Assembly: GCA_963765205.1 (NCBI GenBank) | Contig: CAVXVB010000007.1 | Coordinates: 192,001-256,000, forward strand | Length of the DNA: 64,000 nt | Reading direction: 5' to 3' | From: an uncultured Verrucomicrobiae bacterium | GTDB lineage: Bacteria; Verrucomicrobiota; Verrucomicrobiia; Opitutales; JABDGR01 | In this document: piece by piece, positions 30,001 through 39,000 of the stretch | How positions within the stretch are numbered: the first letter of the stretch is position 1 | Layout of the letters: the number at the start of each line of letters is the position of its first letter | Program-made: the position numbers

Positions 30001-33000
30001 CACCTCGCCAGCCACATCACTCCGATGCTGGTTGCTCAAACGGCTCCCGAAGCCGTCAGTCCCTTCCTCGCCTTCAAAGGCGGCCTCGCCTGCCTGGGTG
30101 CGGCCATCGGCGTCGGTCTGGTCGGCTCCAAGGCGGCGGAAGCCGTCGGTCGCAATCCGAACGCCTTCGGTAAAATCATCGTCATCGGCATTCTCGGCAT
30201 GGCCTTCGCCGAAGCCGTGGCCTTCTACGGCCTCCTCGTCCCGCAGAAGTAACCCTCCCGGCGCATCGCCGCCGTCCCGGCCAGTGCCGGGCGGCGGCGG
30301 ATTCGCCATTCCTTTTCCCACCCAAAAGATTTTTGCCATGCACGACGCCTTCCACTTTCTCGCCGCCGACGGCCCCCTGGACCTGGTGACCAAAATCTTC
30401 GGTCCCTTTGGCGTGAAGCCCGTGCTACTCATCGCCCAAATTATCAACTTCGCGATCGTCTCCGTCATTGTTTACCGCTTTGCCATCAAGCCCATCCTCG
30501 TCACGGTGGATGAACGGAACAAGAAAATCGCCGATGGGTTGAAATTCACCGAGGAAGTTAAGAAAAAACTCGCTGACACGGAGACGCAGCAGGCCGAAGT
30601 CCTCAAGCAAGCCTCCCTCGAAGGCAAAAAAGTCATCGCCGAGGCGCGCGACACGGGCAAGGCCCTCGTCGAAAAGGCGGCGCAGGACGCCACCCGCTCG
30701 GCCGAGGACATTATCAAAAAGGGCCACGAAGCCGTCACCCTCGAACGCTCGCAAATGCTCAACGACCTGCGCCGCGAAGTCGCCCAGCTCGTTGTCACCA
30801 CCGCCAACCGTGTCCTCGCCCGCGACCTCACCGCCGACGAACGCGCCCGCTTTAACACCAGTGCGGCGCAAGATTTATCGAAGAACTAATAATGGAAGAT
30901 GGAAAATTAAAAATGGAAAAATCCAGCCACCGTCTTTCGAGCTATTGAACTCGTCTTAACTTCATTCATTTTTTCCATTTTCCATCTTCCATTATCCCCC
31001 GATGACCCTCGACCGCCAGTATAAGGATTTTGCCAAGAAACTGGCCCGGCTCTCCTTGGACGCCGGCAGCCAGTTGGACCCGGCGCGGGTGGACGCCGTC
31101 CTCTCCTCCCTGCGCGGCCATCCACCCCGCGTCCAGCGCGCCATTCTCAAAGCCTACCTGCGCTACCTGCAAATTGAAGACCGTCGCGGCCGCATCCTCG
31201 TCGAGCACGCCGGCGACGCCAGCCCCGCCGACCTCGACGCGCTCCGCAACCGCCTCGAGAAAAAATATGGCCGCGCCCTCCGCCTCGAAGCGCGGGAAGC
31301 CCCCGCCCTCATCGCCGGCCTGCGCGCCTCGGTGGCCGACGACATCTACGAAGCCTCCCTCTCCAGCCGCCTGACCGCGCTGCAAACGGCGCTCATTTGA
31401 ATTAAGAACTAAGAATTAAGAAACAACCCGCCCTCGTTCTTATCTTTCACCACACCTAAAAATCTTTCCAATCCCTGCCGGGAAATTCCTAATTCTTATT
31501 TCCCGTTTCTTAATTCTGCCCTCTTAATTCTTAATTCCACCTTCCCATGCCCTCCGTTCTCGAACAAATCCAGCAGGAAATCGCCAAGCTTGAAACCGGC
31601 TCCACGCAACGCAACGTGGGCCGCATCGTCACCCTCGCCGACGGCGTCGCCAAACTCGATGGCCTCTCCGCCGTCATGTATAACGAAATGATCGAGTTTC
31701 CCGGCGGGGTCTTTGGCATCGCCCTGAACCTCGAGGAAGACGAAGTCGGCGCCATCATCCTGGGCGACTACGCCCACCTCAAGGAAGGCGACGAAGGCAA
31801 GACGACCGGGCGGCTCCTCTCCGTGCCCGTCGGCAAGGCGCTGCTGGGCCGCGTGGTGGACGCCATTGGCCGGCCCATGGACGGCAAAGGCCCCATCGCC
31901 ACTTCTGAAACTTATGCGGTGGAGAAAATCGCCCCCGGCATCATCGCCCGCCAATCCGTGGACCAGCCCCTCGCCACCGGCATCATGGCCATTGACTCGA
32001 TGATCCCGATTGGCCGCGGCCAGCGCGAACTCATCATCGGCGACCGCGCCACCGGCAAGACCTCGATTGCCATTGATGCCATCATTAACCAGGCCAAGAT
32101 GAACAAGGAAGGTCTGGCCAGCGGCGACCCCAAGTTCCGCCCGGTTTATTCCATTTACGTTGCCGTCGGTCAGAAAAACTCGAACGTCGCGCGCACCGTC
32201 AAGGCGCTCGAAAACGCGGGCGCGATGGCCAACACCATCATCGTCGCCGCCCCCGCCGCCGACAACCCCGCCAACCAATACCTCGCCCCTTACTCCGGCT
32301 GCGCGATGGGCGAATGGTTCATGGAAAACGGCATGGACGCGCTCATCGTTTACGACGATCTCTCCAAGCACGCCGTGGCCTACCGCCAGATTTCGCTCAT
32401 TCTCAAGCGCCCCTCCGGCCGCGAAGCCTATCCCGGCGACGTATTCTATCTGCACTCCCGCCTGCTCGAACGCGCCGCGCGCCTCAACGCCAAAGCCGTC
32501 GAGGCCCTTTCCGGCGGCAAGGTCAAAGGCTCGACCGGGTCGCTGACCGCGCTCCCCGTCATCGAAACACAGGCCGGCGACGTCTCCGCCTACATTCCCA
32601 CCAACGTCATCTCGATCACGGACGGCCAAATTTTCTTGGAGACCGACCTGTTCAACCAAGGCATCCGCCCCGCCATTTCCGTCGGCCTCTCGGTTTCGCG
32701 CGTCGGCTCCGCCGCGCAAATCAAGGCCTACAAGCAAGTAGCCGGCCGCGTGAAGCTCGAGCTGGCGCAATATCGCGAACTGGCGGCCTTCGCCCAGTTT
32801 GGCTCCGACCTCGACGCCCGCACCAAGGCCCAGCTCGAACGCGGTGCGCGCATCGTCGAGCTTTTCAAACAGCCCGCGCTCGCGCCCAAAAGCACGGAAG
32901 TGCAAATCGTCCTGCTCTGGGCCGTGCAAAACGGCATCCTCGACCCCATCGCGCGCGAAAAAATTGTCGCCGCCGCCGCCTCGCTGGATGAATACCTCAC

Positions 33001-36000: not shown

Positions 36001-39000
36001 GATTCCCTTCTTCCTCGAAACTTCGCATTCTTTGTTTCGTAATTAGTAATTCGTTATTCTTACTTTTCGTTTCTTCCTTCTTAATTTTTAATTCTTAATT
36101 TCTTCTTCCATGCCTCTCACCCTCGAAATCGTCACCCCGGAACGGCGGGTTTACCGCGGCACGACGGAGTCCGTCCTCATCCCGACCACCTCCGGGGAAA
36201 TTGGCATTCTGCCCGGCCACGTCCCACTGTTGACGCAGGTGGTCGCCGGCGAAGTGCGCCTCACCAACGCCGGCCCCAACACGTCCCTCCCGGCCTCGCA
36301 CCCCGACGCTGACCAGCCCGGCCCCACCCGCGTCGCGGTGGACAACGGCTTCGCCCGCGTCCTCGGCGATGTGGTCTCCATCCTCACTGACGCCGCGATG
36401 GACGAACGCAAAATTGACCTGCAAGCCGCCGTGGACGCCCAGGCCCGCGCCGAAAAGGCTCTCGCCGCCGCCCGCGACAAGCAACTCGACCCCGCCGAAA
36501 TCCAGCAACTCGAAGCCATCGCCCGCTTCGCCATTGTTCAGCAGTTGATGAAGAAAAGGAATTAGGGTCGTTTAAGCGCGCCCTATGGCTTCGGCTGGGG
36601 CTCATAGCTCCACGTCCAGTCGCCGGCGGTCCAGCGGTCGCTAAGCGCCGGGGCGACCCAGCCGCCGTCGTCCTGGTTGTTCCAGCCAATCGAGTAGAGG
36701 ACAAATTTTTCGCCGCCGGGGTCGCGCTTATAAATTAGGGGCTGCCCGGTGATCAGGTCGGGCGGGAGGGCGCTGGCATAGGCGGGCACGAGGGCGGCCA
36801 ATTTCTCCGGATATTGGCCGGTGGCGAGGCGGGCGCGTTCGAGCGCGCAGGCAACGCGCGCGAGGTCCAGGCCCGCCTGGGCTTCGGCGATGACCATCAG
36901 GGTCTGGTGCGCGGGCGCAAGGGTCTTGAGCAGATAATTATAGGGCGACCAACTGGCCGTGATGTCGTTCTCCATTTTGGTGACTTTGGCGACGGCGGCG
37001 GGGTCGAGGCGGTGGTGCGCCAAATCGTAGCAGCCCAGGATGCCGCCATCATAAAAGCGGCGGAAGCCGATCATGGTCTGGTAGAGCCAGCCGCGCGGAA
37101 AGCGGGCGGAGATGTTGGCCAGGCCGGCGAGGGCAGCATTGTCGGCGGGGATGCCTTCGGGCGTGCCGAGGGTTTGCTCGAAGGCGGCGGTGGAAAACGC
37201 AGCTTCGAACTGCCAGGCGCGGTGGCTCGAGGCGAGCAGGTCAAGGCTGGCGATTTCATCTTCGAGGCCGTCAATCTGGGCGTCATTCCAGCGGTGTTGG
37301 GCGAGGCCCTGCCAGAGGATGGGGATCGCGCCGCTTTGAAAATCCACGGCCAGCATTTGGTAGTTTATCTCCGGGTCGGCGGCGCAGTGCCGGGCGGCGC
37401 GCAGCAAGGTGGTCACATCGTCGGCGGCGAGGCCGGGGAGATTTTGGTCGAGCTCGGCCAGGGCGCGCAGCTCGGTCAGGCACGTCAGGCGGGTGAAGTT
37501 GTCCAGGAGCGCGCCGAGGCTGGCCGCGGCGGGTTCGCCCTCGAGGGGGAAGCGGGTTTCCGGGCGGCGCGCGGCGGCGGCAAAGTCGGCGAGTTCCGCG
37601 TCAAATTGTTTGAGCGGGCCGAGCAGGTCGGTCGTCTGCCAATGGTCGCGCCAGAATTGCAGTTCCACGGGCTGGGCGGTTTCCCAATGGCCGAAATCGC
37701 CGAGGCCATTGGGGACGTGGTCTTCGGGAATAAGGGCGTCGAAGCGCTTTTGGAAATCGCGGGCCGGCGCGGCGGCGGCATCGTTGCCGGAAAGGGCGAG
37801 GTTTTGCAGGAGCGGGGCGGCGGCAAAATTTTGATCATCGGGCACGGCTGGTTGCGCGAAACTGGCGTAATCGAGCCACCAGCCCCCCGCTTTCGCGTGG
37901 GCTTGGTAATCAGTCCACGCCTGAAGGCCCCGGGCGCGCTCGATGTTCAGGTAGAGGATGAGCGCCGCCAGCAGCACCAGCACGGTGATGAGCGCGCGCC
38001 GGACGCCCTTCGCGCGGAGGGATTGGCGGATCGAGTCAAGCGTGCTGGGCATGGGAAGGAAGAATTAAGAAGGCAGAATTAAGAATTAAAAAAGCAGGGA
38101 GCGGGGAGCGTTAAGCAAAGGAAAGCGATGGAAAGTGTCCGGTGGGAAACTTTTGAAGTTTGTTGGATGACTGGGCGGCGGAAGGGATATGGAAAACGCC
38201 AATGCCACGCGAATTTTTACACTTTTTTTATCTGGGTGGCGAGCGGAGATGGTGGCATAGTCAACCAAGAAAGGCGCGTATGAAACACGGGTATCTGGCA
38301 TTTCTTTTCCTGCTGGCGGGATGCGCGCACACCACGCCCGGCGAGGCGGTCGCGCCACAGGCTGCGTCCCCGAGCGAGCTGGAGACGAAAGGCCAGGTGG
38401 AGGCGGTGATTGTGGTGGGTGACGTGCAGTTGATCGCCACGGATGGCACGGCACGCGCGTTGAACCGCAGGGATACTTTTGAGGAAGGGAACAAAATTGT
38501 GGCGAATAAAGACAGTAACGCGCTGCTCGTGTTCTCGAATGGCGCGACGTTGCATATAACTGCGGACACGGAAGTGGAGTTGGTAAAATACCGGCAGGCG
38601 CCGTTTGATGAGCAGGCGAACGGGACATTTCTGCGCCTGACCAAGGATCCGAGCCGGTCGAATATAGAACTCAAATTGACCAAGGGCCGGCTGCAAGTAG
38701 AAGTGAAAAAACTGAACACCGCGGAGGGTTCCACTTTTGATCTAACGACGCTGATGGGGCCAATTCACCTGCGCGAGGGCGGAGTGTTTTCCGTCACGGC
38801 GACGGACCAGTCTTTGAATATGGAGCGCGTGGTTAGGTCGATGCAATTTACACCGACGGTGACGACGACCACGACCAATGCGAACGGCACCTCGACCACC
38901 GTCACCAACGCCAACATTAACACCGCCGCCACAATTACGGTGAATTTGTCCGTGGATCCAACGACTGGCCAGATAACCGGTGGCAGCATGGAGGGCACCA

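Follow-up and report, generated by a model that had tools for sequence, protein, structure and literature searches.

Intergenic hairpins built from tandem heptamers have several described counterparts. Coxiella's 23S rRNA intervening sequence (IVS) has a 28-bp stem with three to four tandem GACAGAT units, a number that varies between strains, and RNase III cleaves it at the first repeat (PMC4990558). The Haemophilus hmw leader contains a heptamer-repeat 5'-UTR hairpin that is processed by RNase III (PMC12721329). Xanthomonas carries intergenic heptamer arrays in inverted pairs, 70-75 pairs per genome (PMC4692102), and in cyanobacteria STRR heptamer hairpins lie between cistrons, with a suggested role in translational coupling or transcript stability (PMC2670836). 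The TAACTGA heptamer arrays of Beggiatoaceae, located just upstream of starts, are proposed to be sites of post-transcriptional regulators, with each CspB protein binding a single heptamer (PMC4679880). In many bacteria, heptamers are reported to be the long simple repeats with the strongest over-representation, and slippage has been proposed as the cause (Mrazek 2007, cited in PMC4679880 and PMC4692102).

The genome studied here resembles Xanthomonas in its inverted pairs of intergenic heptamer arrays, cyanobacteria in the hairpins between cistrons, and Coxiella in the heptamer-built stem; RNase III cleavage, seen in Coxiella, would be plausible here by precedent. With these precedents (PMC4692102, PMC2670836, PMC4990558), the new class proposed in the initial annotation is not supported. 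What is new is that gene-less hairpins and those bearing a PF05635 gene use common unit types, that 52 of 79 PF05635 loci share the layout, and that the arms have a polarity (124 vs 7), the unit types turn over among congeners and the abundance is specific to this genome.

Within the window, the 64,000-nt stretch of DNA that was analysed, the relevant features are the following.

28854..36565, + strand: F1Fo ATP synthase operon atpB-E-F-H-A-G-[PF05635]-D-C, host of the elements, with a Pfam match for each subunit
30889..30997, no strand: atpF-atpH spacer hairpin, arms 30889-30913 and 30971-30995, by RNA fold
31397..31539, no strand: atpH-atpA spacer hairpin, arms 31399-31424 and 31505-31530, by RNA fold
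33117..33217, no strand: atpA-atpG spacer hairpin, arms 33117-33141 and 33193-33217, by RNA fold
34112..34126, + strand: 5' arm of the atpG-atpD element, ATTTATG x2, inverted array
34130..34525, + strand: PF05635 / TIGR02436 gene of the atpG-atpD junction, 131 aa, by profile matches
34513..34539, + strand: 3' arm of the atpG-atpD element, CATAAAT/CTTAAAT units, inverted array
35950..36108, no strand: atpD-atpC spacer hairpin, arms 35950-35985 and 36073-36108, by RNA fold
57266..57336, no strand: AATGGAA-type hairpin of a divergent spacer further along the window, 22-nt arms and 27-nt loop

The atpF-atpH hairpin begins 0-2 nt past the atpF stop with AATGGAA/GATGGAA units, continues through a unique loop of ~50 nt and ends in TTCCATT units ~5 nt ahead of the atpH ATG at 31002; its 25-nt arms (unit AATGGAA) are 92% complementary and the RNA fold reaches -33.1 kcal/mol (z -6.7). 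At the next junction the atpH stop TGA falls within the 5' arm, and the 3' arm ends ~8 nt ahead of the atpA ATG at 31547 (arms of 26 nt, unit GAATTAA, complementarity 85%; -30 kcal/mol, z -8.3). The atpA-atpG hairpin, whose sequence is identical in independent contigs of run X1, has 25-nt AATGGAA arms with 96% complementarity, ends 10 nt ahead of the atpG ATG at 33228 and folds with -37.6 kcal/mol (z -6.0). The atpD stop TAA lies within the 5' arm of the atpD-atpC hairpin, which has 36-nt arms (unit AAGAATT/AATTAAG, complementarity 83%) and ends 1 nt ahead of the atpC ATG at 36110; the 150 nt from 35950 to 36099 fold with -33.6 kcal/mol (z -5.4). None of 200 shuffles folded as well as these four gene-less hairpins (-30 to -37.6 kcal/mol), and potential dsRNA stems of 25-37 bp are indeed placed between the cistrons. 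At the atpG-atpD junction the short inverted ATTTATG arrays enclose an ORF in place of a short loop. This ORF (Pfam PF05635, 1.6e-19, 70.5 bits; TIGR02436, 94.4 bits) belongs to the four-helix-bundle '23S rRNA intervening sequence protein' family; it occupies the loop position, its stop codon is inside the 3' arm, and that arm ends 4 nt ahead of the atpD ATG at 34544. No arrays are present in the atpB-atpE and atpE-atpF spacers, the sequence of which was inspected. Hence, of the five occupied junctions out of seven counted initially, four hold gene-less hairpins and the fifth counts only if the gene-bearing atpG-atpD element is included.

The same anatomy recurs throughout the genome. Stems of 18 bp or longer with up to 3 mismatches number 945, of which, by our own crude gene calls, 434 lie in non-coding and 471 in coding DNA; a period of 7, 8 or 9 is found in 140 of the former (100, 11 and 29, respectively) and in 13 of the latter. 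Of the spacers of 40-800 nt, 1984 in number, 278 hold a stem of 20 bp or more vs 5 after dinucleotide shuffling, and 378 vs 29 one of 18 bp or more. TRF rows in non-coding DNA number 607, 150 and 263 for periods 7, 8 and 9. Adjacent arrays are inverted in 109 cases and direct in 4, with 192 unrelated or unclassified. The inverted heptamer hairpins reported earlier are thereby reproduced with similar counts, and the data support a family of palindromic elements that is real, non-random and spread over the genome. Medians for the 140 periodic elements are 104 nt for length, 58.5 nt for the loop, -42.7 kcal/mol for MFE and 18.5 nt for the distance from the flanking gene, and the 5' arm starts a median of 5-11 nt past the stop codon. 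Twelve unit families comprise 541 of 976 arrays, and the same 31-nt arms are found at 3 loci with unrelated loops.

The arms are oriented: the 5' arm is purine-rich in 124 cases and pyrimidine-rich in 7, and the 3' arm is pyrimidine-rich. Unpaired arrays follow this rule, purine-rich ones lying a median of 22 nt after stops and pyrimidine-rich ones 24.5 nt before starts; our own crude gene calls (79% coding) place starts approximately, so that distances to starts and leader statistics are rough. Under the same reservation, leaders of array-free genes contain 41% C at -10..-1 and show no Shine-Dalgarno enrichment (8.8% at -20..-4 vs 8.8% in the -60..-44 control). Convergent spacers contain no start codon and show the polarity too (5' arm purine-rich in 16 vs pyrimidine-rich in 1); an argument from start codons therefore cannot be its whole explanation.

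The link to PF05635 extends beyond the atp operon. Inverted 7/8-mer arrays flank six of the seven PF05635 genes in the genome (one at the atp junction, 5 elsewhere), with units AGGGACAG, AATGGAA, AGTTTCG, ATTTATG, AAGGATG and CTGAATG, all of which are families of gene-less hairpins. The comparison with rRNA intervening-sequence stems made at the outset is thus apt, as six hairpins, one of them in atp, carry the gene of the 23S rRNA IVS protein. Of the 25 adequately flanked PF05635 loci in 21 related genomes, 19 are surrounded by inverted arrays scoring at least 12. In a sample of many phyla, 52 of 79 loci (score at least 12) exceed the best of 79 mismatched-pair controls (11), and 41 of 79 vs 0 of 79 controls score at least 14; nearly all of these arrays have period 7 or 8. 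The heptamer arms belong to the PF05635 cassette, not to this genome. In the gene-less loops no PF05635 remnants are detectable (hmmsearch --max on all spacers matched only two pseudogene copies), and descent of gene-less hairpins by cargo loss is therefore unsupported; alternatively, hairpins could come first and the PF05635 gene be inserted into them. The density of hairpins is not in step with the number of PF05635 genes: 12 genes go with 5 hairpins per Mb in G029, 6 with 2.5 in G008, and 7 with 39 in this genome (G000).

Unit type and presence vary among congeners in seven atp operons and a second junction, and at most orthologous junctions compared the unit types differ. Elements are gained, lost or replaced, and conservation is unsupported. 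The atpA-atpG junction of congener G001 holds a PF05635 gene flanked by AATTAAG arms; in G004 these arms enclose a GC-rich loop of 30 nt, and in G000 the junction is occupied by the AATGGAA hairpin. Cargo thus comes and goes within homologous arms (G001 vs G004). At the 57266..57336 junction G001 carries the AAGGATG type, G003 and G004 only a pyrimidine array, and G007 and G008 nothing. Congener G003 carries an 88% identical ortholog of the atpG-atpD PF05635 gene at the corresponding junction. The atpH-atpA and atpD-atpC hairpins also align with G003 orthologs, with double compensatory changes in 3 of 41 and 6 of 59 pairs (~3 of the latter in the main stem); this retained pairing would agree both with selection for pairing and with copying from arm to arm. 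Such abundance is peculiar to this genome, which has 39 periodic hairpins per Mb (10-21 per 400-kb chunk); six relatives have 0-6 in 400 kb and two others 0-1 in 100 kb.

We suggest, with roughly even confidence, that the hairpins are gene-less members of a heptamer-armed element whose full form carries PF05635, and that they are mainly DNA-level, self-perpetuating repeats. Elements of this type, initially recognised as 23S rRNA intervening sequences, would have colonised ordinary spacers between protein genes of this soil bacterium and expanded strongly in its lineage alone. Each arm would be a module made up of 7-, 8- or 9-mers in tandem (3-6 or more) and changing in size by slippage, and complementarity would be maintained by copying one arm from the other through template switching in the quasi-palindrome. 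About a dozen types of arm module may be copied or homogenised among the spacers of the genome, the loops being local and unique; identical 31-nt arms at 3 loci, cross-locus identity of 0.91-0.95 in two families and the 12 families with 541 of 976 arrays point to such spread. The claimed co-variation between arms is supported only in part: same-locus arm pairs, pre-selected for pairing, agree better than those of different loci for AAGAATT (0.91 vs 0.78) and CTGAATG (0.92 vs 0.74), but for AATGGAA (0.955 vs 0.91) and AAGGATG (0.97 vs 0.95) different loci are nearly equal. Almost the only elements to persist would be those whose 5' arm is purine-rich and whose 3' arm is pyrimidine-rich, the latter providing a C/U-rich stretch before start codons like the host's normal Shine-Dalgarno-less leaders. 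When transcribed, the element would form a 25-37 bp stem from the upstream stop codon to 1-10 nt before the next start. Host RNase III (rnc, C4:185507-185884) would be expected to cut these stems, by the precedent of the Coxiella IVS and the Haemophilus hmw leader; such cleavage is plausible and would split the atp transcript into single-gene pieces. We also suggest that it would be a consequence tolerated by the host, not the reason for the elements' existence, and that the elements may be neutral. Against our reading stand the independence of hairpin density from PF05635 copy number and the loops free of detectable PF05635 remnants, and no enzyme or target-site duplication accounts for copying both arms without the loop.

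The stems may instead be domesticated RNase III processing or insulation sites, where selected cuts separate cistrons, set mRNA half-lives and tune operon stoichiometry, for example in atp. They are long enough (25-37 bp) and stand exactly between stop and start codons, the rnc gene is present, heptamer-built stems are cut in two experimental systems (PMC4990558, PMC12721329), and two atp hairpins are kept between G000 and G003 with compensatory changes. Yet the 261 sense-strand stem mismatches show no G.U excess (59 G.U vs 77 A.C), and operon spacers are not preferred (occupancy 181/1349 co-directional, 49/380 divergent, 48/255 convergent), which leaves RNA-level selection unsupported. Congener G004 and family member G007 manage the same operon with one or no hairpin, and hairpins are sparser in the samples from G004 (8-fold, 389 kb) and G003 (4-fold, 100 kb). 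We therefore consider this explanation rather unlikely, and the dedicated operon role envisaged in the initial annotation is unsupported, occupancy being alike in the three contexts. That lack of an RNA-level signature would suit neutral by-products of replication, in which slippage generates heptamers in AT-rich spacers, template switching inverts them, and PF05635 merely sits in the same permissive spacers. The reported over-representation of heptamers in many bacteria (Mrazek 2007, cited in PMC4679880 and PMC4692102, with slippage proposed), the unequal arms (4 vs ~14 units at C9:1139031) and the 587 of 976 arrays without partner also favour it. We nevertheless find it quite improbable, as independent slippage should give arbitrary units, not a dozen recurring types with a common higher-order pattern, and leaves unexplained the identical 31-mers, the 124:7 polarity and the inverted arrays at 52 of 79 PF05635 loci from many phyla, some of them in genomes with few gene-less hairpins.

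Position has suggested still other roles. The onset of the 5' arm shortly after stops, the ends of the atp 3' arms 1-10 nt before ATG, the C/U-rich leaders of a host without Shine-Dalgarno signals and the similar role suggested for STRR hairpins (PMC2670836) would agree with translational coupling, where the ribosome melts the 5' arm and frees the 3' arm, or with a REP-like 3'-end protector or bidirectional attenuator. This is very unlikely: of the 139 periodic elements with both flanking genes 91 are co-directional, but 28 are divergent and 20 convergent, where coupling is impossible; none of the atp hairpins corresponds to a terminator-like stem with a T-run; and elements turn over among congeners. 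There is only a slender chance that a single array is the functional unit, a multivalent site for an S1-/Csp-type single-strand-binding protein, with hairpins arising only where both arrays come together in a short spacer. Most arrays are unpaired and follow the rule of position and strand seen in the arms, and the Beggiatoaceae arrays with one-heptamer binding by CspB (PMC4679880) offer a parallel; the preference for same-type complementary neighbours (109 inverted vs 4 direct) given a dozen types, and the arms around PF05635 genes, are left unexplained. In this scheme purine arrays are assigned to act after stops and pyrimidine arrays before starts.

The heptamer elements are distinct in neighbourhood from the Y1/RAYT genes, as had been cautioned. 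GC-rich palindromes adjoin the 3 Y1 genes above the Pfam cut-off, and no tandem 7-mer array or scored hairpin lies within 600 nt of any of them; near one of the three is a single, short array of tandem 10-base units.

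The F1Fo ATP synthase operon of the window, assigned through Pfam, runs on the plus strand of G000, the genome under study, in the order atpB-atpE-atpF-atpH-atpA-atpG-PF05635 gene-atpD-atpC (G000:C7:192001-256000). PF05635 is the '23S rRNA intervening sequence protein' (S23p) family. Five junctions of the operon carry hairpins, as follows.

30889-30997, hairpin between atpF and atpH, unit AATGGAA
31397-31539, hairpin between atpH and atpA, unit GAATTAA
33117-33217, hairpin between atpA and atpG, unit AATGGAA
34112-34126 and 34513-34539, 5' arm (two ATTTATG units) and complementary 3' arm of the gene-bearing hairpin between atpG and atpD, with a 131-aa ORF between them
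34130-34525, this ORF of 131 aa, matching PF05635 / TIGR02436, in loop position at the atpG-atpD junction
35950-36108, hairpin between atpD and atpC, unit AAGAATT

Each of the four gene-less hairpins fills its spacer nearly from stop to start codon. With arm lengths of 25-36 nt and a complementarity between the arms of 83-96%, they fold as RNA at free energies from -30 to -37.6 kcal/mol (z-scores -5.4 to -8.3). TRF finds period 7 in all arms of the operon. Three genes, atpH, atpD and the PF05635 gene, have their stop codon within an arm, and the 3' arms stop 1-10 nt short of the next ATG. Between atpB and atpE and between atpE and atpF, the spacers consist of plain C/T-rich sequence. The loops inspected in the operon are also C/T-rich and resemble the hairpin-free spacers of the family member G007. 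The sequence of two of the hairpins is confirmed by contigs of other DNA runs. An intrinsic terminator, that is a short GC-rich stem followed by a T-run, is ruled out, as none of the 13 terminator-like sites in 28500-37000 (chance expectation 11.4) falls within a hairpin. Rfam 15 over the same interval gives one tRNA and one sub-threshold sRNA match, neither at a hairpin.

Three features of the ATPase genes themselves are noted here. The atpG gene (33228-34110) is split over two frames, with the Pfam N-terminus in 33228-33704 and the remainder in 33337-34110. An independent contig of run X1 is one base shorter at 33389 (depth 5/5), within atpG, and the frameshift is therefore probably an assembly error and not a broken or recoded gene. 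The atpH product (31002-31400, 132 aa) matches the C-terminal half of the OSCP profile alone (positions 87-172); the atpH genes of relatives align over the same short length, thus the short delta subunit is a lineage trait. A second, divergent AtpA-like gene with 49% identity lies at G000:C5:122588-123982 and has counterparts in the relatives G002, G003 and G005, so that G000 probably has a second ATPase operon.

The hairpins are not limited to this operon. Using our own inverted-repeat scan together with gene calls and start codons that are our own approximations (79% coding), we find 945 stems of at least 18 bp with up to three mismatches in the 4.02-Mb genome. Those in coding DNA (471) are short and GC-rich, and only 13 of them show periodicity. 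Among the 434 non-coding stems, 140 have arms periodic at 7, 8 or 9 nt (100, 11 and 29, respectively). A stem of at least 20 bp occurs in 278 of 1984 spacers of 40-800 nt, versus 5 after dinucleotide shuffling. Period 7 dominates the non-coding output of TRF, with 607 rows in 0.86 Mb of non-coding DNA versus 187 in coding DNA; tandem 7-nt units are thus strongly enriched between genes, as is characteristic of heptanucleotide SSR/STRR repeats. Neighbouring arrays are inverted in 109 cases and direct in 4, with 192 unclassified. When the partner is searched for independently of TRF, a reverse complement is found within 450 nt for 199 5' arms and 190 3' arms, and 587 arrays are unpartnered. Twelve unit families take in 541 of the 976 arrays. 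The genome-wide occurrence of heptamer hairpins, claimed in the initial annotation, is borne out, and the medians over the 140 periodic elements (length 104 nt, loop 58.5 nt, 18.5 nt to the next gene and -42.7 kcal/mol) come out close to the figures it gave.

The arms obey a strict polarity: purine-rich 5' arms number 124 and pyrimidine-rich ones 7, with the 3' arms as the mirror image. Since the hairpin reads alike on both strands, the polarity belongs to the element itself, whichever way it is oriented. The rule also applies to unpaired arrays when their position is taken relative to genes, with purine arrays after stops and pyrimidine arrays before starts. In 1020 genes with our own start calls no genome-wide Shine-Dalgarno enrichment is seen: GGAG, GAGG or AGGA is present in 8.8% of the -20..-4 stretches and in 8.8% of control stretches, and the last 10 nt before the ATG are 41% C and 35% purine. 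Hence, the pyrimidine arm ahead of a start codon resembles a native leader. However, the polarity is kept in convergent spacers too (16:1), and this resemblance is therefore not the whole answer.

The arms are shared with gene-bearing cassettes. There are seven PF05635 matches in G000, six of which lie between inverted 7- or 8-mer arrays. The six units are all different (AGGGACAG, AATGGAA, AGTTTCG, ATTTATG, AAGGATG and CTGAATG) and each of them is also a family of gene-less hairpins. The seventh match is a pseudogene with traces of arrays only. Two of the seven genes have an in-frame stop (TAG at G000:C4:217627-217941 and TAA at C2:247696-248010) and are probably pseudogenes; the arms of the C4 copy are nearly lost. 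To our knowledge, this large, many-phylum family has no function assigned outside diversity-generating retroelements. A reading of the atp copy as the Avd gene of such an element, beside a reverse transcriptase, is rejected: the gene sits between atpG and atpD, and no PF00078 (reverse transcriptase) match is present in G000, a genome 92% complete.

The association of the family with inverted arrays extends well beyond G000. PF05635 genes are present in 21 of 31 genomes of the order, and inverted arrays surround the ORF in 19 of the 25 loci with adequate flanks, kin among the compared genomes not being independent. Across phyla (Bacteroidota, Acidobacteriota, Planctomycetota, Firmicutes, Patescibacteria, Proteobacteria and others), 52 of 79 loci score above the best of 79 mismatched-pair controls in a sample that comprises the best 80 of 591 confirmed matches to an 11-sequence alignment of one PF05635 subfamily and is biased towards it. 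A score of at least 14 is reached by 41 of the 79 loci versus 0 of the 79 controls, and the arm period is almost always 7 or 8. We note that the relatives G008 and G029 are poor in gene-less hairpins yet have arrays around their PF05635 genes, therefore the arms belong to the cassette.

Cassettes and gene-less hairpins also meet at the same positions. An AGGGACA-armed cassette is syntenic across the genus and found in a second genus, and the atp cassette is common to G000 and its congener G003 with an identical arm type. Between atpA and atpG, the congener G001 has a PF05635 gene between AATTAAG arms and the congener G004 has AATTAAG arms around a 30-nt loop. Altogether, the atp operons of four genomes hold a PF05635 cassette at two junctions, atpG-atpD in G000 and G003 (locus L032) and after atpA in G001 (L039) and in G014 (L036), a member of another family of the order.

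In G000 the gene-bearing form is the minor one. One of the five atp elements has a PF05635 ORF in its loop, and the other roughly 140-195 hairpins of the genome have neither an ORF nor a detectable remnant. The possibility that the loops are decayed PF05635 genes is rejected as far as such decay is detectable: when all spacers, translated in six frames, are searched by hmmsearch --max with a profile built on 23 family members, the matches are the two pseudogene copies on C4 and C2 and one with E = 4.2. Likewise, a common loop family is rejected by blastn-short among the 126 loops of at least 25 nt, which share nothing beyond nested arrays; there are 46 non-self matches, and nearly all of the 40 inspected are heptamer arrays nested in the loop. 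Hairpins nested in hairpins occur at G000:C9:414460-414598, C5:652312 and C9:1367936, where the loops hold a second array or an entire second hairpin, at times of another family. Such nesting would fit insertion into loops.

The elements turn over between close relatives. In G003, with AtpA 94% identical, every atp junction has a hairpin, each of the ATTTATG/AATTAAG type. A single hairpin is present in G004 (90% identical), G007 has none, and G008 has other types. At a second junction five relatives have another type, a lone array or nothing. Within G000, three loci whose loops are unrelated have identical 31-nt arms, and in two families arms from separate loci agree by 91-95%. Periodic hairpins reach 39 per Mb in G000 versus 0-15 per Mb in eight relatives, which were sampled at 0.1-0.4 Mb, with G029, G030 and G004 on contigs known to be long and found partly via PF05635 or atp genes. 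Per ~400 kb, periodic hairpins (PF05635 genes in brackets) number 1 (0) in G019, 0 (0) in G025, 2 (1) in G004, 1 (6) in G008, 6 (9) in G030, 2 (12) in G029 and 10-21 (7) in G000, and per 100 kb 0 (0) in G011 and 1 (11) in G003. Hairpin density thus does not track PF05635 copy number. Long stems are numerous in G008 and G029, where they are GC-rich, REP-like and non-periodic and are not heptamer hairpins.

The closest known counterpart is Coxiella's 23S rRNA intervening sequence (IVS). As described in the available text of PMC4990558, it is 428 nt in length, with a terminal stem of 28 bp, a loop that holds an S23p ORF and 3-4 tandem GACAGAT heptamers on the 5' side, whose number depends on the strain; RNase III cleaves the stem at the first repeat, in vitro and by RACE, and the authors regard the element as selfish. 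Common to both are the long terminal stem and the tandem heptamers of variable number, and six of the seven PF05635 genes here lie, like the S23p ORF, in the loop; in the G000 elements, arm copy number differs within one element and between relatives. Whereas the Coxiella IVS sits inside a 23S rRNA gene, all elements of G000 occupy spacers of protein genes, and the 23S rRNA gene of this genome is free of insertions (2928 nt for a model of 2925 positions). Furthermore, most copies here lack an ORF, the arms are of about a dozen types and the copies number hundreds per genome.

Inverted heptamer arrays are known from other bacteria as well. In Xanthomonas campestris and X. citri, according to the accessible part of PMC4692102, GGGAATC arrays are 89-93% intergenic, form 70-75 convergent, opposite-strand, stem-loop-capable pairs per genome and vary in length and sequence between close relatives. 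In contrast to the many AT-rich types with strict purine-to-pyrimidine polarity here, this is a single G-rich unit, studied for its G-quadruplex formation, and that part of the paper draws no link to PF05635 ('S23' and 'intervening' have 0 occurrences). The cyanobacterial STRRs are 7-bp tandem repeats, intergenic or intercistronic and hairpin-forming, as between hupS and hupL, for which a role in transcript stability or translational coupling was suggested (available text of PMC2670836). They belong to another phylum and have other units, and that text mentions no genome-wide inverted pairs, no polarity and no PF05635 cargo. In the 5'-UTR of Haemophilus influenzae hmw1A, the transcribed (ATCTTTC)n tract is one arm of a long hairpin processed by RNase III, and changes in repeat number require RNA folding and RNase III, as reported in the portion of PMC12721329 at hand. 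Unlike the present elements, that portion describes a single phase-variation locus with a G-rich non-repeat second arm and the pyrimidine arm at the 5' side, i.e. the opposite polarity. The proposal of the initial annotation that the hairpins are a new class thus does not stand, inverted heptamer arrays being already published in what is available of PMC4692102, PMC2670836 and PMC4990558. What appears to be new here is that gene-less hairpins share arm types with PF05635 cassettes. In the open-access literature we found no description of PF05635/S23p genes outside rRNA in heptamer inverted arrays, or of arms that such genes have in common with gene-less hairpins.

We suggest, as the best-supported reading, that the hairpins are gene-less members of a heptamer-armed, IVS-type cassette family. 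Their upkeep would be chiefly a DNA-level process, in which repeats slip within an arm and one arm is copied from the other. They may have spread or been homogenised among the spacers of one genome and would be filtered by the tolerance of the flanking genes. As RNase III cuts both the Coxiella IVS and the hmw1A hairpin, the transcripts should, by analogy, be RNase III substrates.

It is also possible that the hairpins serve as RNase III-type processing or insulation sites, as the initial annotation proposed. The chief point for such a function is that the atpH-atpA and atpD-atpC hairpins are alignable between G000 and G003 and fold in both species, with a few double compensatory changes. However, the share of spacers with a stem of at least 20 bp is 13.4% for co-directional, 12.9% for divergent and 18.8% for convergent ones, and this similar occupancy means that operons are not preferred. 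Selection on the RNA helix is also not evident from wobble pairs: among 261 mismatches in 2418 pairs of stems in co-directional spacers, 59 are G.U and 77 A.C on the sense strand, which is no G.U excess. The hairpin-poor atp operons of close relatives speak against this function, too. A more far-reaching possibility, which we consider rather unlikely, is that heptamer-armed hairpins with or without PF05635 together form a single widespread class of 'messenger-RNA intervening sequences'. Such cassettes would insert at cistron boundaries and at rRNA helix tips and be excised by RNase III, and the PF05635 four-helix-bundle protein would help to propagate or maintain them.

If true, the latter would tie the heptanucleotide excess in bacterial spacers (Xanthomonas, cyanobacterial STRR, G000) to one protein family and one RNA-processing step, and the strict polarity, with the purine arm 5' and the pyrimidine arm 3', would be the imprint of the mechanism that makes the arms. 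Among long simple repeats, heptamers are those most over-represented in many bacterial genomes (as cited in the available texts of PMC4679880 and PMC4692102). G000 unites repeat and protein family at high density, with a dozen arm types, hundreds of gene-less hairpins and six gene-bearing ones with the same arm types, and its essential atp operon has such a stem at almost every cistron boundary. This makes a possible RNase III dissection of polycistronic mRNAs, any effect on expression without a Shine-Dalgarno sequence and a possible role of PF05635 in the birth or upkeep of arrays testable in one system. If the elements are merely selfish, they would still be a clean bacterial foldback-type repeat, in which the arms but not the middle spread. 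Drosophila foldback transposons have long inverted arms of short tandem repeats, variable in length, with variable or gene-bearing middles, and the intercistronic hairpins of T7 early genes are cut by RNase III to give monocistronic mRNAs. These eukaryotic and phage cases are analogies for architecture and for a possible RNA fate only, with no homology implied.

REP/BIME repeats, with their RAYT (Y1) genes, and MITEs are short palindromic extragenic repeats in hundreds of copies, also found within operons, and the elements here fill spacers, operons included, in the same manner. MITEs are marked by target-site duplications and by an internal sequence that is conserved. The loops here, in contrast, are unique, which sets the elements apart from MITEs, and no target-site duplications were seen by eye in ~20 copies. 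REPs are GC-rich and non-periodic and flank their own Y1 gene. The heptamer arms are AT-rich and periodic, and it is GC-rich palindromes that adjoin the Y1 genes instead, hence the hairpins do not belong to the REP/RAYT type. The genome has three Y1 (IS200/IS605-type, RAYT-like) transposase genes:

G000:C5:148180-148527, Y1 transposase gene
G000:C5:557983-558324, Y1 transposase gene
G000:C9:1288880-1289206, Y1 transposase gene

GC-rich REP-like palindromes, a family separate from the heptamer hairpins, flank two of them. No 7-mer array or scored hairpin lies within 600 nt of any of the three (beside one of them there is a short tandem array whose unit has 10 bases), and with this lack of association Y1/RAYT is rejected as the mobilising enzyme of the heptamer hairpins.

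A further distinct hairpin family has arms of three 9-mers (CACGGA followed by three variable bases) with conserved outer ends, AACCACGG...CCGTGGTT. Examples in G000 are C9:1076096, C5:525450 and C7:273138, and there are none in the window. Two adjacent units stand at 58 sites, and for 29 of these an exact-pattern check recovers the complementary arm downstream. This family is often found in convergent spacers, and some of its loops hold a heptamer array of another family. Unlike the heptamer types, its sequence is conserved across the order, near-identical arms being present in G019 and G030, which belong to other families of the order. The RNase III gene (rnc) of G000 is matched at C4:185507-185884 on the minus strand, and a hairpin of the 9-mer family lies at C4:186114-186245, ~230 nt from this match on its 5' side.
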